Assembly: GCA_000004985.1 (NCBI GenBank)
Contig: GG738914.1
Source: Naegleria gruberi
Taxonomy: Eukaryota
Reading direction: 5' to 3' (one strand)
DNA: 64,000 nt
Of this stretch, positions 32,289 through 63,492 are shown piece after piece. Each line of letters opens with the position of its first letter. The first letter of the stretch is position 1. The notes beneath the pieces are model-generated. The model made no database searches and was not told the origin of the DNA. It was given only the letters and a program-made list of their open reading frames with translations. Made by a program: the position numbers and the translations under genes.

Positions 32289-34190
32289 TTATGAAATATT
32301 TGACATTGGATGCTGTTTGAAAATCAGCCTTTCAGCTCCTTGCTCTTGATATTCATCAAGTTTCATCCAATACGTACTATTATTATAATTATTGATTAAG
32401 AGAGATTTTCCACCCATCCAAGCAGAGTTCTCATGATTACTTTCACCAGTAACATTAATTAATGAGCCTGAAGGTGAAATTTTTCTAATTTCATTTTCGA
32501 GTCTTGTGTTGAATCCTTTAAATAAAGTATTTCCACCACAAACAAACACATTACTTATTAATTCTGCTTGTTGCTCTTTGGAAAATTCCTGTAATGTGTT
32601 TTCCAATATCTCAGCAAGACCTATTTGATCTCTTCCAGCAATTAATGGTTGGAAAACAATTTCTGGAATACGAATTCTTTCAACTGTCAATCTTAACCCA
32701 GTATTATCTGACATGTTCTTACTTTTCTTATATTGAGAAATGAAATGTGACTTGACATAGTCAGTCCTCTTCTCACCGAAATGTTTCATTTCTACTTTGT
32801 GGATGAGATTTGTTAAATCATTAACTTCAGAAGTAGCTTTCTTTACCTTCTTGGCATCAACAACTTCTTCCTTAGTGGAGGATTTCTTCTTTTTTTTCTT
32901 CTTTTTCTTATCAGTATCGTATAAACTCCAATCATCAAAGGTTTCATCTTCTGCATCATGAATTTCAGCTGCAATTTTGGATTTTTGTCTTTGCTTTGAG
33001 GCAGCTGATCTTTTGCTCTTAAGGGTGTGATCTTTGCTTTGTGAAGAAAGTTCAAATTGCATTTTTTGTAATTTGAATTGAAGTTGAGCCAATTCGTTCC
33101 TCTTGGTTTCTAACCATTTTTCACACTCAGATAAGTTTTTAAACTCAGGAATTGGGTGTTCATCAGGTTTAATTTCTGCTGTTAATTGTGCTGCAGCTTC
33201 TTTTGCTTTTAAAAATTCCTCATATTGCAACTTATTGTTGAAAATTCTAACAGTGCTATTTTCATAAAATTCCTTGTCTTCTGATAGTTTTTGCAATACA
33301 GAATGATAATCATCAGAAACCTGACAATAGTTGACTTTTAAGAATTCTGCCTTTGTTACAGACAAGGAAGGTATTCCCAAAACGTCATAAATAGGAATAA
33401 AATATTTAGAATCTGTCCCAATATTTGGATATTTCAATTGCATTGTCTTTAAGAGTAAATCAGTGGCATGAAAACCTCCTAAATTTAATCTTTTACAACT
33501 ATTCCACTGGACTGTACCATTTAGTATTGGTATCACGTGAGTAGAGTGAAAACCAGATCTAATAATTAATGAATTTACATTGGAATAATTCAATGATTTT
33601 TCTGTACAAGATTGATGCAAACTTAATAAAGCATCAATAGATAAATTAATAGCAGGTATTCCATAACATTCGAATAATATTTCAAGAGTAGATTGTCTTG
33701 TAAATGCAGGATTTAAAATAGATTCAGTAATTACTAATGGAATATCTTTTAAACTAATGTCACTAGCTGTTGAAAATCCCAATTTATAGAATATATAATC
33801 CATCACTTGTTCAAAATATTCAAAACTTGTTACTAAATCATTATCAAAAGGAGATCTTGCATTATATCTTAAATAATCAAAAGGATGTAAATCATTTCCA
33901 ACTAAATATCCTCCATTATGAAGTACTAATTTATCATCATCGGAAACAAAATCCAAATTTTTAATCTCACTCGCTTTTAACTTGGCACACAATGGCCTAA
34001 AATTGAGAACAGGTTCATCCATTGAAGACCAACCAGCCCTACAATGATAACTTCCATTATCAATAATAATTCCTAAAGGATGATTTTCATCGGTACTCAT
34101 TGATGGCACCGGATGAATCTTTTCAATTTTATGCAAGTCTTCATCTTCCTCTATGGTTTCAAAGTAATTTTTCATTTGCATCATCATCAC
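32289..34190 (-). CDS. actin-related protein, Arp5-like (actin fold with a large charged insertion)
   Basis: 633 aa. N-terminal actin-fold phosphate loop GIIIDNGSYHCRAGWS and C-terminal FVCGGNTLFKGFNTRLENEIRKISP...NSAWMGGKSLL. A ~150-aa K/E-rich insertion (KKKKKKKKSSTKEEV...) is typical of Arp5; Arp8 is not excluded. Confidence 0.6.
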   Translation of the reverse strand: MMMMQMKNYFETIEEDEDLHKIEKIHPVPSMSTDENHPLGIIIDNGSYHCRAGWSSMDEPVLNFRPLCAKLKASEIKNLDFVSDDDKLVLHNGGYLVGNDLHPFDYLRYNARSPFDNDLVTSFEYFEQVMDYIFYKLGFSTASDISLKDIPLVITESILNPAFTRQSTLEILFECYGIPAINLSIDALLSLHQSCTEKSLNYSNVNSLIIRSGFHSTHVIPILNGTVQWNSCKRLNLGGFHATDLLLKTMQLKYPNIGTDSKYFIPIYDVLGIPSLSVTKAEFLKVNYCQVSDDYHSVLQKLSEDKEFYENSTVRIFNNKLQYEEFLKAKEAAAQLTAEIKPDEHPIPEFKNLSECEKWLETKRNELAQLQFKLQKMQFELSSQSKDHTLKSKRSAASKQRQKSKIAAEIHDAEDETFDDWSLYDTDKKKKKKKKKSSTKEEVVDAKKVKKATSEVNDLTNLIHKVEMKHFGEKRTDYVKSHFISQYKKSKNMSDNTGLRLTVERIRIPEIVFQPLIAGRDQIGLAEILENTLQEFSKEQQAELISNVFVCGGNTLFKGFNTRLENEIRKISPSGSLINVTGESNHENSAWMGGKSLLINNYNNSTYWMKLDEYQEQGAERLIFKQHPMSNIS

Positions 34191-36609: not shown

Positions 36610-38784
36610 TTAAATGTGCTTTACAGCCTTTATGATGAGCAAGTAAAGTCCAGATGCATTGATTCTTATATGACAATCTCCAGTAAGATTTTTTGGAACC
36701 TCTTTCATAGCTGTAACAAGACTTCCTTTAGCACTATCTGTAGGTTCTTTAACACACTCTACCAAAGAAAGGTATTCCATTAGGGAAACAACTTTGATAT
36801 TTGAGAAGGTATGAAGAACTCTCAAATTATAGTCAGTACATTGATTCGTTGCAGTGAAACACATTGGTGCATAGATTACTAATGCTCTTGGGTTATACAT
36901 GAACAATGAATAGTAAGAGTCTAATCCTTGATTAGTTATGAATACATCCATTACTGTGAAAAGTCTTATTTGCTGAACAACAGTCATATCGTCCAATTTC
37001 AAGTTCAAAATTCTAATACTTTCATATCTGTCATCAGGAATTCTGTGAGAGTTGACTTGCTGTAAAATGTCCTTGGCCAATCCACTTAAGTAGTCAGTCA
37101 ATTTATCAGCATTCACAATACTTTCTTTCTTGGAAGAATTAAGTATACCAATAATCAAAATCTTCTTTCTTCCTTCAAAGTAGCTTCTTGGAGGTACATA
37201 TCCCATTCCATTCAAAACGTAATCTCTGAAAACTGGAATCAAGTGATGTCTCTTTTCAGGTGATAGGAAATAAGAGTCAGGAGAACCTACAACCAAACTT
37301 GAAAAACAAGTGTCCAATTCCTCACCTTCCTTATCCAACGGTTTGGATTGAGCATTTCTCAATTGTCTACATGGAGCAAAATCAACATAGGTACCCTTCT
37401 CGTCATTATCACAAACTTGAAGAGGAAGACTAGATGAAACAAATGATCCAAAATCAATTGAAAGGTCTTCAGCCATAGATGCCTTTTCTAATTGTGCTCT
37501 AGAGAATTTACCAGTTCCATCATTGTGAACATCATCTAGGAACAAAATATTATTGTCATAATTTACAAACTCGTAATCGGCCATCTGATTAAACATTGGC
37601 AAGTAGTTGTTCATAACAAGTGATCCAACTTCTTCAGCATTATGTCTGAAAAATCCAAATGTTGGAGTGGAGACCCATTTGAAATTCTTGGCTAATGTAA
37701 TTGTGGTTGGATGAATTTTCTCAGGAGTCAAGTTTTCAGAGCCCTTATATAAAACAGATTTTGGAGGTGGTGCTATCTTTAACTTGAATTTGGCTGGAGA
37801 AAACTCTTCATTGTAAACAGAAGATGTAAAAACCCAAGGCCTTTCATTTGTTTCCAAAGGTTTGTTTGTGTAAATAATCCACTCTCCTTTTCTATTCAAA
37901 CAGATATTTTCAAATCTGCAGGTTGTAAATTGAACATCAGTCTTTTTAACACTATCCATATCCACATCATTCCTGATGCAATTGTCTTTACTCTCAAACA
38001 TGTAACTAATAGCAGATAGAGTTGATTTAGGAATTGTTGATACATCAATTCTTGCCTTAATTTCATTTTCCTTGTCAATGTAAAATCCAGGTTCACTCTT
38101 TTCTGGGCCCCTAGAAATAGATATCAAAGGTTGTGATATATCTGACTCTGATACACTAGTTAATCTCTTGTCGGAAGTAAATGTTTCCATAATCGAAGGA
38201 ACTTTGGGAGGATTATATCTGCTCAAAAGAGGGAAGGCAGTTTTACTAGAACCTGATTTCAAGCCACCAAAGAACACTCCCTTGATTTTAGATAAGGCTG
38301 TTGTTGGTTGAATGGTGTTCTTTCTCAACAAGGACAGCTTTTCCTTTGAATCTGATAATTCCTTATTAATGGATTCTTGGAATTGAGAATGATGGTGTTG
38401 GTCCAAATGCTCAAAAGAAGAACTAATATCCCTTTCAAAATCCTGTCTTTCAGCAACGCTACTGAAAAAGTACAGCAACATATTTAAGAAGAAAATCAAC
38501 AATGAAATATAAAAAACAACCTTGATGAAGAATACGATGGATCGTTTAGGTTGTAGGGCCTTAAATGTTTGTCCATTGTGATTAGCATTTGATGAATTGA
38601 GGGACTGGAAATGCAGTGATGACGTATGATTTGGTAGCGAATGATTAAGGGTTACACCAAATGGTGTTGAGGTGGATGGTTTGTTACTTGAATCAAGCAG
38701 AGGTCCCTCCGAAGAGAACATTTTTTTTAATATTGATATCTTAAACGAATATCTAGCATCGCTCTCTCTATTGTTCTGGAGCAA
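36610..38784 (-). CDS. hypothetical type-II membrane protein; possible DUF563/GT61-like glycosyltransferase
   Basis: 724-aa ORF with a single N-proximal TM (IVFFIKVVFYISLLIFFLNMLLYFF) and a large lumenal domain. The C-terminal FTVMDVFITNQGLDSYYSLFMYNPRALVIYAP loosely resembles the GT61 vGvHGAgLTN..F..pgavviEi motif. This is a weak assignment. Confidence 0.35.
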   Translation of the reverse strand: MLQNNRESDARYSFKISILKKMFSSEGPLLDSSNKPSTSTPFGVTLNHSLPNHTSSLHFQSLNSSNANHNGQTFKALQPKRSIVFFIKVVFYISLLIFFLNMLLYFFSSVAERQDFERDISSSFEHLDQHHHSQFQESINKELSDSKEKLSLLRKNTIQPTTALSKIKGVFFGGLKSGSSKTAFPLLSRYNPPKVPSIMETFTSDKRLTSVSESDISQPLISISRGPEKSEPGFYIDKENEIKARIDVSTIPKSTLSAISYMFESKDNCIRNDVDMDSVKKTDVQFTTCRFENICLNRKGEWIIYTNKPLETNERPWVFTSSVYNEEFSPAKFKLKIAPPPKSVLYKGSENLTPEKIHPTTITLAKNFKWVSTPTFGFFRHNAEEVGSLVMNNYLPMFNQMADYEFVNYDNNILFLDDVHNDGTGKFSRAQLEKASMAEDLSIDFGSFVSSSLPLQVCDNDEKGTYVDFAPCRQLRNAQSKPLDKEGEELDTCFSSLVVGSPDSYFLSPEKRHHLIPVFRDYVLNGMGYVPPRSYFEGRKKILIIGILNSSKKESIVNADKLTDYLSGLAKDILQQVNSHRIPDDRYESIRILNLKLDDMTVVQQIRLFTVMDVFITNQGLDSYYSLFMYNPRALVIYAPMCFTATNQCTDYNLRVLHTFSNIKVVSLMEYLSLVECVKEPTDSAKGSLVTAMKEVPKNLTGDCHIRINASGLYLLIIKAVKHI

Positions 38785-38904: not shown

Positions 38905-39469
38905 TTGAAAAAAATGTCAGAAAGTGAAGAGCCAACAGCATTTTGCATTTTAGATGATCACATCAAGTCGGAAGAACTAATACAAAACTATACAACTATT
39001 CGAAATGAAATGTTGGAAATTGAGAGGAATAAGCTTTTGCTTGTTGTGATTGGTTGCTTGAGAGATACAAATAATAACTTTACAAGATTTCAAATGGCAT
39101 GTTATGACAAGTCGTGTGGGAAATTCGTCACTGTTTGCTCTTTATCAGTCGGATTTACACAAGAACTAAAACAAGAGATCTCAGAAAGATTATCCAAACT
39201 CATAATACCAAGTCCAAGTGCTAATGTTATTTTCAATGAAAAACAGCCAGCTCAGGTTTGGTTTGCCAATTACAGTTTGGGAAGTAAAAGCTGCTGATGT
39301 TGGGTTATCAACTGTTCATATGGCTGGACATGGATTGATAAAGGAGGGAGCAGGCTTTGCACTTAGATTTCCAATGTTTAACAAAGAGAGGCCATTCAGG
39401 AAACCAAAGGATATTACCACTGTTGATGATATAATTAAAATGTATCATCGACAAGCTATACTATTCTAA
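38905..39469 (+). pseudogene. relic fragment of an ATP-dependent DNA ligase, C-terminal OB-fold region only, with a frame disruption
   Basis: Two overlapping ORFs in different frames. MACYDKSCGKFVTVCSLSVGFTQELKQEI resembles the ligase OB-domain (GKFxTVCKVGTGFSDEEL). VWEVKAADVGLSTVHMAGHGLIKEGAGFALRFPMFNKERPFRKPKDITTVDDIIKMY matches the ligase I C-terminus ([40 protein letters not shown]...). No adenylation domain (KxDG) lies upstream; a different gene starts at 38784. Confidence 0.5.
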
Positions 39470-40824
39470 ACTTCCTCTTCATAATCAGTTTCTTCGCTTA
39501 TTTCAATATAATCATTTTGAACAGATCGTATTTCTTCTCTACATTGTGTGAATTCTATTTCTTCTGCTCCTTCCTCAAGATACCTGTGTACGAATGATCT
39601 TTCAGAGTATAATTCATCAAAATTTTTCTCGATTCTGGAAAAAGTTTGGCTTATGCTGGTGGAGTTTGACAACATGTTAACATCCCTATCTCTGTAACAA
39701 ATATTTCCACCAGGAATATTCGACAGAGGACCATCATGAATTCCACATTTAAAACCAGCTGGGCACCAGTCAACAAATTTAATTTCTCTGGATGTCTTGA
39801 TCTTGGCTATGGCAGAGCTAACATGTCTAATGCAAATATCCCCTCTGTATTGGACAGTGCACACCATGAATTTGCCGTCCATTAAATTGCAATTAGTCAT
39901 CACTGAATATTTATCCATAAAACAACTTTCAGTAAGCTCAGTAATAGTTGGTTTCTCATAACTACAGAAAACAAATTCCTTAGGGTACAAAGGACTCATT
40001 GAATTGATAAGATATTTAACAGGCGGGTACGGGACAAGATTTGTCATTATTTCAGAAATAGATGAATTCAAACTTCCTTCTCTCCTTACTGATATTGTAG
40101 CCGAGGAGATTGCATTTGCAATAATTTCATTCAAATCTGTCATCTTTGGGTGCTCTACATTCAGCTTGTTTTTACAAATGTCAATTAAAGCTTCATTTTC
40201 CACAATAACTGAAGCATCCGAATACTCACGAATGGAATTCATTCCAAATAGGACATTGTATGATTCCACACATGAAGATACAGAACTTGGTGAAGCTAAA
40301 ATATCAAAACTTAATTTACACTTTTTCTCAAACCCTGGTGCTAGTCTCTCCATCAATAAATCTCTAAAACCAGAGCCAGTTCCTCCATTAAGAGATGAGG
40401 TTATTAAGAAACCCTGTAATGCGTCACATTCTTCAACCATTTTCTCAATTCTTTCCAAACAATTTTCCAAAACTAAATTTCCTCCAACTCCTCTTCCTTT
40501 AGCAAAATTATTGGCCGTATTTTCATTGCCACTAATTAAACTCTCACCATCATAAATATTATTATTTCCTGATCTGATTTTATCAATAATTTCAGAATCC
40601 AAATCAACGAATAATGCTCTTGCTCTCATCGTTCCGTCCATTGACTCGGAAAAGAAATATTTATCAGCTGCAGAATGATTGTGAATTTTAGCACCAGTTG
40701 AAGAATCAATTCCATGTTCCAAACACAATAAATCCCAACAAGTGTTTCCGATCTGAGAGCCTGCTTGTCCAATATGAATAGAAATTATTTCTCTCATTTT
40801 CTTGGTTGGCTTATTTTTTGTCAA
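39466..40824 (-). CDS. highly divergent alpha-tubulin-like protein
   Basis: 452 aa. MREIISIHIGQAGSQIGNTCWDLLCLEHGI (compare alpha-tubulin [30 protein letters not shown]), the tubulin signature NGGTGSGF, TNLVPYPP, KFVDWCPAGFKCGI and SNSTSI are all present. By eye, sequence conservation outside these blocks looks low relative to canonical alpha-tubulin; no identity was computed. An acidic tail is present. Confidence 0.75.
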   Translation of the reverse strand: MTKNKPTKKMREIISIHIGQAGSQIGNTCWDLLCLEHGIDSSTGAKIHNHSAADKYFFSESMDGTMRARALFVDLDSEIIDKIRSGNNNIYDGESLISGNENTANNFAKGRGVGGNLVLENCLERIEKMVEECDALQGFLITSSLNGGTGSGFRDLLMERLAPGFEKKCKLSFDILASPSSVSSCVESYNVLFGMNSIREYSDASVIVENEALIDICKNKLNVEHPKMTDLNEIIANAISSATISVRREGSLNSSISEIMTNLVPYPPVKYLINSMSPLYPKEFVFCSYEKPTITELTESCFMDKYSVMTNCNLMDGKFMVCTVQYRGDICIRHVSSAIAKIKTSREIKFVDWCPAGFKCGIHDGPLSNIPGGNICYRDRDVNMLSNSTSISQTFSRIEKNFDELYSERSFVHRYLEEGAEEIEFTQCREEIRSVQNDYIEISEETDYEEEV

Positions 40825-41120
40825 TTTTTAATTGAAAATTCAGGATTGTTTTACAATGATATTTCTGAATCATTTATTTTACATTCATTATTATTGTAAA
40901 CATAAGTAAATTATTTTCATTTTCTTTGGAGCTCCGATATATCTTAATATGAGATAATTCCGTCGGGATTTATCAGTAATCAACTCCAGAACTCCAGATG
41001 CTTACGTTTATTACTACTGTGAGTACAACTTGATATCAAGGTGGAAATTGAAATCAATTCACAACACCTTTAAAATCTTTCAAATTCGAGAACAACACAA
41101 AGCAATTTAAAATCAAAAAA

Positions 41121-42248
41121 ATGTCTTCAAATACTTGTTCCCTCTCACAAAATTCCATCAATACGATCAATAAATTGTGGGGGTTTGAAAGCTCAACACA
41201 AACTGTGATTAAACAATCGGAAAATCATACCTATTTGGTGAAGGATAATTCCGAACAATCCTATATTTTGAGACTCACTCCTAAACATCATCGTTCAGTG
41301 AAGAGTATTTGGGCTGAATTGGAATATTTGAATTTAATTCATGATCAAGCTAAATTACATAGTCAAGATGAGAAGTATGCTCTCAATGTTTGCCCACCAA
41401 TTGCTAAGAAGGTGAATGAAAATGGAGAATTTCTGCTCATTGCTGAATTGGAAGAACCATACGAAACTGATAAGGAAAAGGTTTGGTATGGAGTCTTGTT
41501 TGAATATGCTCAAGGTAATTCTGTTGTTGATAAATGGATTGGTTTGACTGATGATTCAATGATTGTTGCAATTGGAGATGCTATGGGAAGATTACACAAG
41601 ATTATTTCTGAAAAGGCTGGAAATCCTGAAAGATGGGACGAAATGGCTAAATATATTCCAGAAATTTCAGGCACTCATAATGGAGCTTGTGATTTGAATC
41701 GTATTAGAGAAAGAGCTCAAAAGGATCATGAAATCTCAAAGACTTTAATTCAAATATATGATGCAGAATTGGCTGAATTTTTGAAATCTCACCCAATTGA
41801 CTCTGAAAATTATGGTATTGTACATGGTGATATCAATGTCAGTAATTACTTTGCCAAGGTTCAACCAGAAGGAACCAAGCTGTGGATTTTCGATTTTGAT
41901 CAAGTTCATAATAATTACTTTGGACATGAGCTTGGTGTCGTACTTCATACAGTTACTTTCTTTGAAAACGATGGTCTTGGAATTGGTAAAATTGAAGGTT
42001 TCGATGGTGATAGATTTAGAGAACTATTCCTCAATGCCTACAAAAATGCCTATCCACCTATGGCAAAATATTTGGATGTTGAATCATTGAAAAAGTTTGA
42101 ACTCCTTCGTGCTTTCTATCACACATCTATTGCTGCCGATATTTTGTACCTCAAGACTGAAAATCCTGAATCAAAAAATTTCGAAGAAGCAATTATTGGA
42201 TTTTGCCAAATTGTTGTTGACAAGTTTATTAAGATCCACACTCAATAA
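41121..42248 (+). CDS. APH-family phosphotransferase (aminoglycoside/choline-kinase-like protein-kinase fold)
   Basis: 375 aa. Brenner motif IVHGDINVSNY (HGDxxxxN) and the metal-binding WIFDFDQV (DFD) have APH/ChoK-family spacing. The N-terminal lobe reads YILRLTP. Confidence 0.65.
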   Translation: MSSNTCSLSQNSINTINKLWGFESSTQTVIKQSENHTYLVKDNSEQSYILRLTPKHHRSVKSIWAELEYLNLIHDQAKLHSQDEKYALNVCPPIAKKVNENGEFLLIAELEEPYETDKEKVWYGVLFEYAQGNSVVDKWIGLTDDSMIVAIGDAMGRLHKIISEKAGNPERWDEMAKYIPEISGTHNGACDLNRIRERAQKDHEISKTLIQIYDAELAEFLKSHPIDSENYGIVHGDINVSNYFAKVQPEGTKLWIFDFDQVHNNYFGHELGVVLHTVTFFENDGLGIGKIEGFDGDRFRELFLNAYKNAYPPMAKYLDVESLKKFELLRAFYHTSIAADILYLKTENPESKNFEEAIIGFCQIVVDKFIKIHTQ

Positions 42249-43553: not shown

Positions 43554-44892
43554 ATGCTCAAATCAAGAGTCATTGCCTCACGTGTTTTAAAGAATAATAA
43601 TCAAAAATGCATCAAATTGATGGCCGGAACACAAAGATGTGTCTCCAGATCACCATTATTTGATTTTACCGAAGAAGAAGTCATGATGCGTAATCTTGTT
43701 CAAGACTTTTGTAAACAATCACTTCCGTGGGAGCTTGTTTCCAAGATGGACAAGGAATCAAAACTTGACCCAAAATTGTTGGATTCATTGTTTGAAGTTG
43801 GATTAATGGGTATTGAAATTCCAGAGGAATTTGGTGGCAGTGGAGCTAATTTTACTTCTTCAATTATTGCAATTGAAGAATTGGCCAAAGTTGATCCTTC
43901 AATTTCTGTCATTGTTGACGTTCAAAATACTTTGGTTAATAATTTGGTTCGTAATTATGGTAATAAGGAACAACAAGAAAAGTATTTGACTCTTCTTGCT
44001 ACTAAAGGTCTTGGATCTTTCTGTTTATCTGAAGCAAGCTCAGGTTCTGATGCATTCTCATTAAAGACCAAGGCTGAACTCCAATCTGATGGATCCTATG
44101 TTTTGAATGGTACCAAATGTTGGATTACCTCTTCACAAGAAGCATCTTTCTATATCGTTATGGCCAATACTGATTTCTCTAAGGGATACAAGGGTATTAC
44201 TGCCTTTTTGGTTGACAAGACTAATCCTGGTGTCAAGATTGGTAAGAAGGAAGATAAGCTCGGTATTAGGTATGTGTGTAATTTATTATTGAACTTGTTT
44301 TCTTAACACTTTTATTAGAGCTTCATCAACATGTGAAGTTATTTTGGAAGATTGTAAAGTTGGCCCAGAATCAATTCTTGGAGGTGTTGGTAAGGGTTAC
44401 AAGATTGCTATTGAAATGCTCAATGAAGGTAGAATTGGTATTGCTGCTCAAGTATGTATTTTATGATTTTGATTGTTGACATTTAATAAGATGATTGGTT
44501 TGGCTCAAGGTGTCTTTGATTACACAATGCCATACTTAAAGTCTCGTAAGCAATTTGGTACTCCAATTGCTGATTTCCAAATGATGGAATATCATTACAG
44601 TAAACTTGCTACTGAAATTGAAGCTGGTAGATTAATGGTTTATAATGCTGCCAGAATGAAGGAAGCTGGACAAGTATTTACTAAGGAAGCTGCTATGGCC
44701 AAGTTTTACACCTCAGAAGTTGCTGGAAATGTTGCAACCAAGTGTATTGAAATGTTGGGTGGTGTGGGATTCTGTCGTGATTTCAGTGCTGAGAAATATT
44801 ATAGAGATTGTATTATTGGTAAGATTTATGAAGGTACCAGTAATATCAACTTGGTCACCATTGCCAAACATGTAAAAAAGCAATACGATTAA
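43554..44892 (+). CDS. acyl-CoA dehydrogenase, short/branched-chain type (ACADSB-like), mitochondrial, 3 exons (43554-44269; 44319-44451; 44491-44892)
   Basis: Presequence [19 protein letters not shown]-domain [14 protein letters not shown]; middle beta-domain [28 protein letters not shown]. Introns are GTATGT...TTATTAG (49 nt) and GTATGT...AATAAG (39 nt), both frame-preserving. The C-terminal domain [18 protein letters not shown]...[28 protein letters not shown] resembles ACADSB ([28 protein letters not shown]). Confidence 0.85.
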
Positions 44893-58671: not shown

Positions 58672-60033
58672 TTAGGGATATTGGACTCGATTTCCTAAGG
58701 TGATGTTTTGATAGGCTTCCTTCATGCGAATGTCAAATAATTCTTTCGAGTATTGTACATAGAATCCATTGGATTTAACTGCTTCGATCTGAAGTAGCAA
58801 GTTGTTCTTTCTGTTTTGTCCGTTTAATAAATAACCCAAATTTGTTCCATCCATTCTGATATTTCTTTGAGGATCATATAGAGATGAAATATTGCTATTT
58901 GGTGGAGAACTCTGATAAAGATGTTGTTGAATTTCAGTATCTTTCTGTAGAGATAGGGGAATTAAGGAAGTAAGAAATCGATTCTTTGAAATTGCAAGCA
59001 AAGCCAATGTCTTGTCATGTTTCAATTCTGTGGAGCAGAATTCGTATGCTTCTGGATTCTTTTGAATAGCTATCATGACCAGCTCTCTATCATTTTTCAA
59101 TTCATTGGAGGCATATTTGAGAGCTGCACCATTTTGATTCACTGCTTGGAGCACTATTTCTCTATCATTCCTTAGTGAATCGTCCAAATATTGAAGAGCT
59201 GCTCCGTAGCGAGTGACACTTTTCATGACAATGTTTCTGTCTTTTTTGAGAGTTGTTGATGCATATTGGATGCAAGAACCTTGGCTTTTGATTGCTTCCA
59301 TTACTAATTCAAAGTCATTTTGTAAATTGGAATTTACATATTTAAGAATCTCAGGATGAGTATTGACAGCTGTTATCACAATTTCCCTATCATTTCGAAA
59401 TGAAAATGTGTATTCCAATGCTCTTCCGTTTCGTTTCACAGCCTCAAATACCAATTCTCTATCATTCTGTAATGATTTATCAGCAAACTTGATAGATAAT
59501 GGCTCGTTTTTCACTGCCTCCATCATTAATTCCCTGTCCTTTCTTAATTGTTGCGAAACATGCGAAAGAATTTCTGAATCTCCATTTCTTACACATTCCA
59601 ATAGTACATTCCTACAATTTATCCATTTCACTAACTCCTTTTTTACTGATCCAATCTTAATAATATCACTAAATTGGTATCTTTTAGCTAATTTTACAAC
59701 CATTTCCTCAGTCAATCGATCTTGCAATTTTTTCCCTTGTTTACAAAAGCTTACAAAAAATTCAACGAAAATGTCTTCATCTTGTTGTAGGCTCGGAGGA
59801 ATCTGTTCAAATATCGAAATGGCCTTTGGAAAATCCCTTCCACAATTTTCTCTTCTAATAAACTTGAGTAGAAAATTCTTATCATGAGAAAATTCTATCG
59901 GAATGTATTGATAATTGTCTTCTCTGCGCTCCAGCCATAATTTTCTAAATTTCCTATCAATAGAATAGTGGTTTTTCAGGAGAGAACTTGGTGCCGAGTC
60001 GGAGAGCATAATTATAACATGTTGTTGATTCAT
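58672..60033 (-). CDS. repeat protein with 7.5 tandem 25-aa repeats (DUF4116-like)
   Basis: 453 aa. After a ~160-aa non-repeat head come DRELMMEAVKNEPLSIKFADKSLQN / DRELVFEAVKRNGRALEYTFSFRN / DREIVLQAVNQNGAALKYASNELKN and further copies. I recall this motif as DUF4116-like; this is unverified. Confidence 0.6.
   Translation of the reverse strand: MNQQHVIIMLSDSAPSSLLKNHYSIDRKFRKLWLERREDNYQYIPIEFSHDKNFLLKFIRRENCGRDFPKAISIFEQIPPSLQQDEDIFVEFFVSFCKQGKKLQDRLTEEMVVKLAKRYQFSDIIKIGSVKKELVKWINCRNVLLECVRNGDSEILSHVSQQLRKDRELMMEAVKNEPLSIKFADKSLQNDRELVFEAVKRNGRALEYTFSFRNDREIVITAVNTHPEILKYVNSNLQNDFELVMEAIKSQGSCIQYASTTLKKDRNIVMKSVTRYGAALQYLDDSLRNDREIVLQAVNQNGAALKYASNELKNDRELVMIAIQKNPEAYEFCSTELKHDKTLALLAISKNRFLTSLIPLSLQKDTEIQQHLYQSSPPNSNISSLYDPQRNIRMDGTNLGYLLNGQNRKNNLLLQIEAVKSNGFYVQYSKELFDIRMKEAYQNITLGNRVQYP
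58950..59550. repeat. 75-bp periodic coding tandem repeat (the 25-aa repeats of the 58672-60033 gene)
   Basis: Repeated ...aatgatagagaa(a/t)t(a/g)gt... blocks corresponding to the NDRE(I/L)V motif at 75-nt spacing. Confidence 0.5.
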
Positions 60034-60331: not shown

Positions 60332-61231
60332 ATGACTCAAAAAAAAATGACCAAACGTGTATTAATTTTTGGTCAATCAGGTGTAGGTAAATCCTCCATG
60401 ATCAATGCTCTCGCCAATAGCAAACTCCCAGTTTTGGATGGAGCAGTTGGAACCACCTTTGAAAGCGAAGAAGTTTCGTTTAAAGATTCGTCCAATCAAG
60501 AAATACTTCTCATCGATACAGTAGGTCTCAGCGAATCAGCAACTGGCACCTCCTCTTCAATCGATTCTTTCATCAAACTCAAAAATCTATTGAAAAAATC
60601 AACTTGCGGTTTCAATTTAATGATCTTTGTAACAACCAAAGATCGAATCACAGGTAATGATAAAGCCAATATCGAACTATTCAAGACTATTCTTGGTGAT
60701 GACAAAGTGCCAGTAATCATGGTGGTTAATAAGAGTGAAAATCTTGAAGATTGTGAGAATATGGTATTAGATTTGGAGAGTAATCAGTGGGTTACTAAAA
60801 ATCTTTTGTATATTGAACAAGTTTATGGAAAGGATTGTTTTGCTTGTATTAAATCGACTTCTTTCCCATGTACGAAAGGAGACGATTTGACATTCTCTGA
60901 AGAGGAAAAGAAGTTGGTTAGTGAAGCTTCGAGAAGGATTGTTCTCGCAATGATTAACAAGTACTCTTCCAAGGAAAGTGTAGTACTTATCAGATCTAGT
61001 CAAGATTTATTTTCGAAACTCGTTCGAATGTGGAATTTGTTTCTTTTTAAAACTGGAGAGACAGCTTTCAAGATTGGAATTGATTTACAATCATTCTCAA
61101 GTGTTGGAAAGTTGGCAGAGAAACTAAAGGTGATCTTTAAGGCAGATATTAATTTTCTTGAACTGGCTATGGATCTTTATGGAATTGGTGTCAATAACAA
61201 TGAACATGATGTTGCTTGTAATAAAAAATAA
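60332..61231 (+). CDS. P-loop GTPase of MMR_HSR1/AIG1-like type with a C-terminal helical domain (paralogue A)
   Basis: 299 aa. G1 LIFGQSGVGKSSMINAL, G2 AVGTT, G3 LIDTVGL, G4 VVNKSE. The same architecture recurs in the next two genes. Confidence 0.7.
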   Translation: MTQKKMTKRVLIFGQSGVGKSSMINALANSKLPVLDGAVGTTFESEEVSFKDSSNQEILLIDTVGLSESATGTSSSIDSFIKLKNLLKKSTCGFNLMIFVTTKDRITGNDKANIELFKTILGDDKVPVIMVVNKSENLEDCENMVLDLESNQWVTKNLLYIEQVYGKDCFACIKSTSFPCTKGDDLTFSEEEKKLVSEASRRIVLAMINKYSSKESVVLIRSSQDLFSKLVRMWNLFLFKTGETAFKIGIDLQSFSSVGKLAEKLKVIFKADINFLELAMDLYGIGVNNNEHDVACNKK

Positions 61232-62346: not shown

Positions 62347-63492
62347 ATGAAACCACCAAGTTTCGAATCACAAGTCATAAATTCTTCCAACTCTAAAACA
62401 CAACAAATAACTGCCTTCAACAGTGTTACCTACAATACCGACAATACCATTGCTATCAAATATCTAAACCAATCGAATGGTGACGTTTCCAAAGCCATTG
62501 AAAATTATTTTGATGAACAGGAACAACAGTCAACTGATTCAGATCGATCAAGTATTTCAAATCCTTCCAGTGATGTAATTCGCATTTTGGTTGTTGGTAT
62601 TACAGGTTCTGGTAAATCATCCCTTGTCAATGGAGTTACTGGAAGTACATTAGCAACAAGTGACAATGCCAATGGATGTACCTGTGGATATAAACGACAG
62701 GAATGTGAATACGAAAGTCAAAAATTCGAATTAATCGATACAGCTGGATTTGGTGAAGTTTCTGAAGTTGGAACTGTAAAACCAGATGTTGCTTTCAAAT
62801 CTATTCAAAAATTGGTCAGATATTCATACTCTGGTTACAATTTGATCGTATTTGTGACAACAAAGAAAAAAATTACTCAAACTGATGTTGATCATGTCAA
62901 GCTAATCACAGAGATACTTTGTAAAAACTCCATTCCAACAGTATTACTTGTTAACAAGTCTGAATCTGGTGCTAACAAAATTGATGACATCTGTCAAAAT
63001 AAGTGGCTCAATGATAATAATGGAGCAAATCTGAATGAATTCTACAAAGCTTTTGGAAAGGACACCTTTCGAGCCATTCAACAAATTGCTTTTCCAAAAG
63101 GTGAAAAATCAATCCTTCAACAAATTAGAGAAGCATCCAAAAGGATATTCTTCGAGAAGGTTATTCCCTATGCTTCCCCAACAAGAATTGTCATGAAACA
63201 CACAGTATCTCAATTTCTATCGGATTGTTACAGAACTGAGACAAGTGGTGTAGATGGTACCTCAAAGCATAATTTCATTGTTGGAACCATACTATTGCCC
63301 TTCCTTCCACTCATGTTATGGGCGGAGAGTTTTGAAAAAACCATGAAAAAGAGGGAAATTAAAGAGTTGGAAGAAGAGCACAGTAATTTTTTGGTTTCAA
63401 CCTTATCAATCAGTAAGAAACAGGCAGTACAAATTGCCAAAGAGAGCGTCACCTATGAATTTTCTGAATTGGGATCAGGTTCATGGGAATAA
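62347..63492 (+). CDS. P-loop GTPase, paralogue C, with an N-terminal UBA-like module
   Basis: 381 aa. Residues ~20-60 DNTIAIKYLNQSNGDVSKAIENYFD have a UBA/CUE-like pattern. Then G1 LVVGITGSGKSSLVNGV, NGCT, LIDTAGF, G4 LVNKSE, followed by a longer C-terminal helical/hydrophobic region (ILLPFLPLMLWA). Confidence 0.65.
   Translation: MKPPSFESQVINSSNSKTQQITAFNSVTYNTDNTIAIKYLNQSNGDVSKAIENYFDEQEQQSTDSDRSSISNPSSDVIRILVVGITGSGKSSLVNGVTGSTLATSDNANGCTCGYKRQECEYESQKFELIDTAGFGEVSEVGTVKPDVAFKSIQKLVRYSYSGYNLIVFVTTKKKITQTDVDHVKLITEILCKNSIPTVLLVNKSESGANKIDDICQNKWLNDNNGANLNEFYKAFGKDTFRAIQQIAFPKGEKSILQQIREASKRIFFEKVIPYASPTRIVMKHTVSQFLSDCYRTETSGVDGTSKHNFIVGTILLPFLPLMLWAESFEKTMKKREIKELEEEHSNFLVSTLSISKKQAVQIAKESVTYEFSELGSGSWE

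Follow-up and report, generated by a model that had tools for sequence, protein, structure and literature searches.

A 64,000-nucleotide stretch of the Naegleria gruberi genome (contig GG738914.1 of assembly GCA_000004985.1), called the window here, carries on its minus strand a complete, intronless gene of 443 codons (39466..40797; ATG at 40797, TAG at 39466-39468) that encodes an exceptionally diverged alpha-tubulin paralogue. Alpha-tubulin is among the most constrained of eukaryotic proteins, and Naegleria is a classic system for the multi-tubulin hypothesis, in which current work counts two sets, flagellar and mitotic. The window gene belongs to neither. Judged by its sequence, it forms with a single N. 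gruberi paralogue a third, highly diverged alpha lineage, of which it is probably a functional member, maintained by selection and acting through the mechanism proposed below. The pair has shed one third of the 'invariant' alpha residues and yet seems to stay under selection.

The gene itself is already on record, through the GenBank annotation, published tubulin trees and the 'bonus' tubulins of Fulton 2022. It is listed in three inventories, those of Velle 2022, Fulton 2022 and, according to the latter, Fritz-Laylin 2010, none of which offers functional data. The present analysis adds evidence of selection, an apparent restriction to N. gruberi, and a residue-level map of the parts of the protein that are kept and those that are rewritten.

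An exceptionally diverged alpha-tubulin

The original prediction had placed the gene in an open reading frame at 39466..40824 and had left its strand, which is minus, unstated. This frame is present, but the real coding sequence falls short of its 5' end. The frame begins with a TTG (40824), two codons behind a TAA in the same frame (40828-40830), whereas its first ATG lies at 40797 behind an A-rich stretch. Translation from this ATG begins MREIISIH, a start that coincides in the alignment with residue 1 of every alpha-tubulin and matches the 443-residue NCBI model. The nine codons upstream of it (40798..40824), which lie inside the mechanical frame and are bounded by the same TAA, are most likely 5' untranslated region. 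Chance does not account for the open frame: from the base composition, the probability that 443 codons in a row stay open is ~8e-17, and each of the other five frames is interrupted by between 12 and 55 stops. Over its whole length, the encoded protein matches the N. gruberi 'alpha-tubulin' XP_002670562.1 (EFC37818.1; UniProt D2VZB7) with 100% identity, and every motif previously quoted for it is found at the expected residue, namely MREIISIHIGQAG (residues 1-13), GQAG, GGTGSG and the tail SEETDYEEEV.

All parts of the gene described below lie on the minus strand. A Tubulin/FtsZ GTPase domain (PF00091, E=2e-49; residues 3-209, 40171..40791) is followed by the tubulin C-terminal, or intermediate, domain (PF03953, E=8e-26; residues 258-390, 39628..40026), and both this order and the length of 443 residues are those of a full-length alpha-tubulin (~440-450 residues). 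In a sequence search of the PDB, all 60 among the matches listed are alpha chains (E ~1e-125). The AlphaFold2 (AF2) model of the protein, with a mean predicted local distance difference test (pLDDT) score of 70 and a predicted template-modelling (TM) score (pTM) of 0.77, likewise finds alpha-tubulin chains as its top Foldseek matches (TM 0.88).

Canonical alpha-tubulins are typically more than 70% identical to one another across eukaryotes. The window protein lies far outside this range: it is 41-45% identical to the canonical alphas of animals, plants, fungi, Chlamydomonas and the Naegleria flagellum (43% to human alpha), 39-41% identical to the Naegleria mitotic alphas and 29-31% identical to beta-tubulins, and it departs from 14 reference alphas at 65 of the 173 positions where these are invariant. 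Three markers nonetheless identify it as alpha-type: Ala12 in GQAG, the insertion in the S9-S10 loop, and, in T7/H8, a Glu equivalent to Glu254, a position held by Lys in beta. In alpha, this glutamate activates hydrolysis of the GTP on the beta subunit that follows. The strict tubulin signature, the PROSITE pattern [SAG]-G-G-T-G-[SA]-G, is departed from in the window protein and its paralogue alike, both of which read NGGTGSG with Asn137 at the first position.

Phylogeny leads to the same assignment. In a neighbour-joining (NJ) tree built with the reference alpha and beta sequences of Velle et al. 2022 (Data S5/S6), an alpha clade that includes the window protein is separated from beta in 100% of 300 bootstrap replicates, and the window protein groups with its N. 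gruberi paralogue (XP_002682585.1 / EFC49841.1) in 100% as well. This tree holds alpha and beta only; placement relative to gamma, delta, epsilon and zeta rests on the published maximum-likelihood (ML) tree (Velle et al. 2022; 1,191 tubulins, gamma outgroup) and on the Fulton inventory. In the ML tree, Ngru_60961 and Ngru_45327 form a pair within alpha with full support, on branches of 0.26 and 0.36, respectively, and a stem of 0.65. From scaffold sizes and tree topology we infer that the window gene is Joint Genome Institute (JGI) protein 60961 (scaffold_70) and the paralogue JGI 45327 (scaffold_2). The scaffold sizes support this mapping: in the NCBI records the window gene lies on a scaffold of 233,110 bp and the paralogue on one of 1.0 Mb, to be compared with 261 kb for scaffold_67, 416 kb for scaffold_36 and 468 kb for scaffold_19; an identity of 67% between the two proteins also fits the branch lengths. 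The PDB matches, the Foldseek matches and both trees thus bear out the two central claims of the original prediction, that the protein is an alpha-tubulin paralogue and that it is strongly diverged.

Close relatives beyond this pair did not emerge from the searches. A word-indexed search of 5.8 billion proteins returned the N. gruberi paralogue as the sole close relative (66-67% identity), the remaining matches being ordinary alpha-tubulins at 41-47% identity. With a profile built from the two paralogues, the pair scores 965-989 bits and the best single-domain alpha about 490 bits, and when 1.84 billion cluster representatives were scanned exhaustively with HMMER, the pair's own cluster (965 bits) was followed by single-stretch matches of at most 463 bits. 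One extra match of intermediate score proved to be a mis-predicted tandem fusion of canonical alpha and not an orthologue. The proteomes of N. fowleri, N. lovaniensis and Willaertia magna, all present in the searched database, contain no orthologue; the lineage is either restricted to N. gruberi or was lost in those relatives. It would have arisen by duplication within the N. gruberi lineage, or have survived only there.

Kept and rewritten surfaces, and a proposed role

In the following, canonical positions are given in human alpha numbering and regional identities are those to the consensus of canonical alphas. The nucleotide pocket appears largely intact. Gly10, Gln11, Ala12, Gln15, Asp69, Asn101, Ser140, Gly143-Gly146, Glu183, Asn206 and Asn228 are all kept, as are Asn249, Glu254, Asn258, Trp346 and Lys352 on the minus-end longitudinal face, so that the catalytic and longitudinal residues seem to be preserved as well. 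By alignment, the T1 loop GQAG occupies residues 10-13 (40759..40770) with its alpha-type Ala12. The T3 loop, GNENTANNFAKG (residues 90-101, 40495..40530), keeps the Asn101 equivalent and carries Asn in place of Asp98 (N93) and of Lys96. The T4 signature NGGTGSG spans residues 137-143 (40369..40389; GGTGSG 138-143), and before GGTGSG, where Gly, Ala or Ser is usual, stands Asn137, which replaces Gly142 in both paralogues. In the T7 loop and helix H8, GSLNSSISEIMTNLVPYP (residues 241-258, 40024..40077), the equivalent of Asn249 is kept and the catalytic Glu254 aligns with E249 (40051-40053), while Asp251 aligns with Ser246 (40060-40062). The S9-S10 loop, SNIPGGNICYRDRDV (residues 359-373, 39679..39723), retains the alpha insertion, in columns where beta is gapped.

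The other surfaces tell a different story. Those that make lateral contacts (H1-S2, H2-S3, M-loop), the intradimer surface (T5, H11') and the outer surface (H12, tail), together with H3, all appear to have been rewritten. Identity to the consensus falls to 20% in the H1-S2 loop, 18% in H2-S3, 23% in the M-loop and 7% in the tail, in line with the divergence that the original prediction had noted for the H1-S2 region and the C-terminal tail, and the divergence extends outside the loops, to H3 (27%), H5-S6 (27%) and H12 (40%). The changes found in both paralogues include E71D, D98N, G142N, Y224M, D251S and K394N. Both have also lost the HP motif of the H2-S3 loop (His88, Pro89), with a one-residue deletion, and in both PRIHF has become PPVKY and most of the M-loop and much of H12 are changed. 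In the strongly diverged H8-S7 and M-loop region (residues 258-289, 39931..40026), Arg264, His266, Phe267 and His283 are all replaced, and the window copy has a two-residue Cys-Ser insertion that is not found in the paralogue.

At the intradimer interface, the T5 loop, PSSVSSCVESYN (residues 170-181, 40255..40290; canonical P[Q]VSTAVVEPYN), is remodelled in both paralogues from PQVSTAVVEP to PSSVSSCVES and is 82% identical between them. Helix H11', FVHRYLEEG (residues 402-410, 39568..39594), has Leu in place of Val409 in both copies, and in the window copy alone Trp407 is replaced by Arg (Arg405, 39583-39585). H11' is the most conserved element of alpha-tubulin and touches H8 of beta at the intradimer interface, and even a W407H change alters microtubule dynamics in yeast (PMC12934608). 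Helix H12, which forms the outer surface bound by motors and microtubule-associated proteins (MAPs) (residues 412-433, 39499..39564), is 40% identical to the consensus here, as against 84-88% in the Naegleria mitotic alphas. Lys40 is absent, the H1-S2 loop is shortened, and the C-terminal tail SEETDYEEEV (residues 434-443, 39469..39498) has only about 10 residues and is still acidic. The isoelectric point of 4.80 and the net charge of -24 are those of a normal alpha-tubulin.

Based on this distribution of kept and altered residues, we propose that the window protein would still bind GTP and would stack head-to-tail with a beta-type subunit. We propose this pairing because the retention of Glu254 in both copies would otherwise have no obvious purpose. 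The partner may, speculatively, be an equally divergent N. gruberi beta-like tubulin (53354/44804, 44710 or 44840). Because the lateral and outer surfaces are altered, we further propose that the protein builds a specialised polymer, or is a minor component of one, and makes no use of the canonical motors, MAPs and modifying enzymes. It would differ from canonical tubulin in its partner, its lattice and its interactors, and would probably be a minor or conditionally expressed isotype.

Several points weigh against this proposal. Pocket and interface sites that are invariant in the 14 reference alphas are altered (E71D, D98N, Y224M, D251S, W407R and the T5 loop), and because of these changes neither GTP binding, nor activation of hydrolysis of beta-bound GTP, nor dimerisation with a standard beta is assured. 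The confidence of the AF2 model is low for residues 236-268 (T7/H8-S7) and 346-355 (part of H10-S9 / S9-S10) and for the tail. The mapping to JGI 60961, through which the published tree is read, is drawn from scaffold sizes and tree topology. Literature searches by accession and locus tag found no expression, localisation or biochemical data for the gene, and the main text of a 2024 RNA-seq preprint does not discuss the extra tubulins. Lastly, the name of the JGI model (fgeneshNG_pm...) lacks the expressed sequence tag (EST) extension that the flagellar and mitotic genes have, which is compatible with low or conditional expression. Logan-derived members are absent for every N. gruberi tubulin, well-expressed ones included, and are thus uninformative on transcription.

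The main rival reading, which we consider unlikely though it deserves serious attention, is that of a non-polymerising protein with the tubulin fold and a derived role, acting for instance as a chaperone or sequestering agent of a beta-type partner, as a cap, or as a regulatory GTP-binding protein. Such a role would agree with the lateral-contact elements being the least conserved of all, with the replacement of His283, His88, Pro89 and Arg264, with the low conservation of H12 relative to the mitotic alphas, and with the exchange of Asp251 for Ser and of the intradimer-interface Trp407 for Arg; Fulton 2022, moreover, holds that the 'bonus' tubulins are unlikely to form typical microtubules. 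It sits less easily with the retention of the Glu254 equivalent and of Asn249, Asn258, Trp346 and Lys352, which is sensible only against the E-site of a beta subunit, or with the preserved overall acidic charge and acidic tail, and noncanonical beta-like tubulins of Tetrahymena do enter specific microtubule arrays (PMC3382179). A polymer-forming alpha-type subunit remains the reading that we prefer.

If the window protein is expressed and assembles, it would constitute a natural experiment on which surfaces of tubulin are indispensable, and it would point to an undescribed microtubule-like structure. A bolder and rather doubtful extension is that 60961/45327 and divergent beta-like tubulins (with 53354/44804, 44710 and 44840 as candidates) together make up a third, species-restricted alpha-beta system with co-evolved contacts and a non-canonical lattice. 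The T5 loop and the Trp407Arg change in H11' would then be the co-evolved intradimer contacts, and the system might serve a structure or stage that has gone unexamined, for example cyst formation, a cryptic sexual cycle or de novo basal-body assembly. In the Data S4 tree of Velle et al. 2022, the beta-like proteins 53354 (scaffold_68) and 44804 (scaffold_65) form a fully supported pair with a stem of ~0.6, close to the ~0.65 of the divergent alpha pair, which hints that the two pairs may be a matched alpha/beta set.

Selective maintenance and relation to other tubulins

The original prediction left open whether the gene is specialised or a decaying duplicate. Four protein-level tests (stops in simulated drift, conservativeness of substitutions, site bias and shared derived states) favour a maintained gene and contradict decay. 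In the first, the window coding sequence was substituted neutrally, with an AT bias, a transition/transversion ratio of 2 and indels excluded, until it reached 82% protein identity, which is half the divergence seen between the paralogues. The simulated copies accumulated a mean of 5.6 stops each and only 0.2% of the replicates stayed open (P=0.002), whereas both real copies are open. In the second, the 145 differences between the paralogues have a mean BLOSUM62 score of +0.19, as against -1.12 +/- 0.12 in shuffled pairs. In the third, both paralogues have the same residue at 75% of the 173 columns without variation among the 14 reference alphas, as against 62% of the columns elsewhere (Fisher p=0.007). 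In the fourth, 57 of these 173 columns prove to be changed in both copies, 37 of them to the same new residue; E71D, D98N, G142N, Y224M, D251S and the PSSVSSCVE of the T5 loop are examples. For the elements H3, T5, H5-S6 and H8-S7, identity to the canonical consensus is as low as 27-31%, but between the paralogues it reaches 77-85%. Elements so far from the consensus and so alike between the copies therefore reflect a new common constraint rather than decay. Taken together, the gene is intact and appears to be kept by purifying selection.

We accordingly regard it as quite improbable that the gene is a young pseudogene, that is, a decaying duplicate of an alpha-tubulin gene. What speaks for decay is the extreme divergence, with the loss of 65 of 173 positions that are invariant in other alphas, the gene model without an EST extension, the lack of an orthologue in the other sequenced heteroloboseans searched, and the adjoining frameshifted fragment of a DNA-ligase gene, which could be seen as local gene debris. 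The frame, however, runs through 443 codons with correct N- and C-termini, without any stop and without the frameshifts that, according to the original prediction, would have indicated a pseudogene. Each copy had only the probability of 0.002 given above of escaping stops at such divergence, and both are intact; the substitutions between them are conservative and avoid the alpha-invariant columns, and the derived residues are common to the two copies and conserved in both.

The two copies are not equivalent. The paralogue is 67% identical to the window protein over its full length and, like it, lacks Lys40 and has a short tail. It differs in an MKN extension ahead of REIISIH, in a longer H1-S2 loop, in the missing Cys-Ser insertion and in keeping Trp407. 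It has lost 16 alpha-invariant residues on its own, as against 8 in the window copy, which, with its shorter branch (0.26 versus 0.36), seems to be the slower-evolving of the pair.

The mitotic alphas of Naegleria (alpha6; Chung 2002, Velle 2022) are also N. gruberi proteins, divergent and altered in H11', and they too lack Lys40 and a C-terminal Tyr. They are, however, 57-58% identical to human alpha (JGI 58607 and 55745; the flagellar alphas reach 79-85%), compared with 43% for the window protein, and they make up a clade of their own, to which orthologues from N. fowleri and Acrasis belong (Velle 2022, PMC9036621), whereas for the window gene the searches found no N. fowleri orthologue. They also keep H12 (84-88%), the HP of the H2-S3 loop, PRIHF, Asp251 and Tyr224, none of which the window protein does. 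That the window gene is itself one of the known mitotic, or spindle, alphas is a suggestion that the fame of Naegleria for divergent mitotic alphas (PMC9036621) and the missing Lys40 might invite, and it is very improbable. The published quantitative PCR primers of the two mitotic genes are absent from the 64,000-nucleotide window, identity to the mitotic proteins is the 39-41% given above, and 1% of the 300 NJ bootstraps place the window protein with the mitotic clade; all three contradict a mitotic identity. Furthermore, positions 404, 407 and 408 of its H11' are Phe, Arg and Tyr and not the Tyr, His and Phe of the mitotic signature F404Y / W407H / Y408F (PMC12934608). The gene is thus neither a flagellar nor a mitotic alpha and is probably a member of a third, highly diverged alpha lineage.

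It is scarcely credible that another family (gamma, delta, epsilon or zeta) has been misread as alpha: at 43% identity to canonical alpha the protein is, to be sure, as distant from it as beta is, but the best PDB matches listed are all alpha, the bootstrap support for alpha against beta is 100% in the NJ tree of alpha and beta sequences, the pair lies inside alpha in the gamma-rooted ML tree, the alpha-specific markers are present, and N. gruberi carries separate, conserved, single-copy gamma, delta and epsilon genes (Fulton 2022), so that an ordinary orthologue of one of these, the outcome that would have overturned the original prediction, is not what we find.

Within N. gruberi, the window gene is one of the 'bonus' tubulins, seven alpha-type and five beta-type proteins that are highly divergent and without known role (Fulton 2022), and that, as described there, were first listed in Fig. 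S4B of Fritz-Laylin 2010. It counts among the seven alpha-type members. Of the whole set, this gene and its paralogue have diverged least and are the only ones stably inside alpha (stem ~0.65 substitutions per site), whereas others (65597, 71268, 72133, 51830, 69007, 65724 and 44774) have branches of 1.3-2.6 and an unstable placement.

Beyond Naegleria, the closest functional analogues would be the noncanonical isotypes of ciliates. Tetrahymena ALT1-3 and BLT1-6, the divergent alphas of Stentor and Paramecium kappa are likewise lineage-specific and highly diverged, with reduced or altered C-terminal tails, and some Tetrahymena BLTs are confined to particular microtubule arrays (PMC3382179, PMC9294176). 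The Stentor proteins are the weakly supported sister of the window pair in the Velle tree (75.9/0.992/75), a grouping that may reflect long-branch attraction; there is no evidence of orthology with ciliate tubulins.

Genomic surroundings

The window has a G+C content of 25-36% and mostly uninterrupted genes, in keeping with nuclear DNA of N. gruberi, to which the protein match assigns it. Searching it by tblastn with 23 alpha and beta queries matched only the locus described here and revealed no second tubulin and no beta partner. The neighbouring genes are unrelated, and the context does not bear on the function of the tubulin. Upstream, a 323-bp intergenic region (40798..41120), presumably the promoter region, is shared with a divergently transcribed gene for an APH-family (aminoglycoside/choline-kinase-like) phosphotransferase (41121-42248, plus strand).

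On the other side, two ORFs in overlapping frames (38905-39469, plus strand) carry the OB domain from the C-terminus of an ATP-dependent DNA ligase and meet the tubulin gene tail-to-tail at its stop. Joining them across a 1-nt frame change (~39262-39270) extends the PF04679 match from positions 3-63 of 94 (E=7e-7) to 3-91 of 94 (E=4e-13). There is no space upstream for an adenylation domain, the next gene starting about 120 bp off. These ORFs resemble a pseudogene or a gene fragment with a frameshift, although a sequencing error is possible too. Directly downstream of the tubulin gene and this fragment lies an ORF of 724 residues (36610-38784, minus strand) with no Pfam match at E<=0.001.

An ORF of 633 residues (32289-34190, minus strand), some 5 kb away from the tubulin gene, contains an Actin-family domain (PF00022, E=1e-53, in two stretches); much longer than actin, it is possibly an actin-related protein with insertions. 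An ORF at 43554-44306 (plus strand) holds only the N-terminal and middle domains of an acyl-CoA dehydrogenase. The C-terminal domain presumably lies in an exon further on, so that an intron, absent from the tubulin gene, is likely here. Genes for Sel1-repeat proteins and a P-type ATPase are also among the more distant neighbours, as is one for a protein of 453 residues with at least five DUF4116 repeats (58672-60033, minus strand; E=2e-78). Two genes with AIG1/MMR_HSR1 GTPase domains (60332-61231 and 62347-63492, both plus strand), the second of which also has a UBA-like domain, look like a local pair of paralogues.

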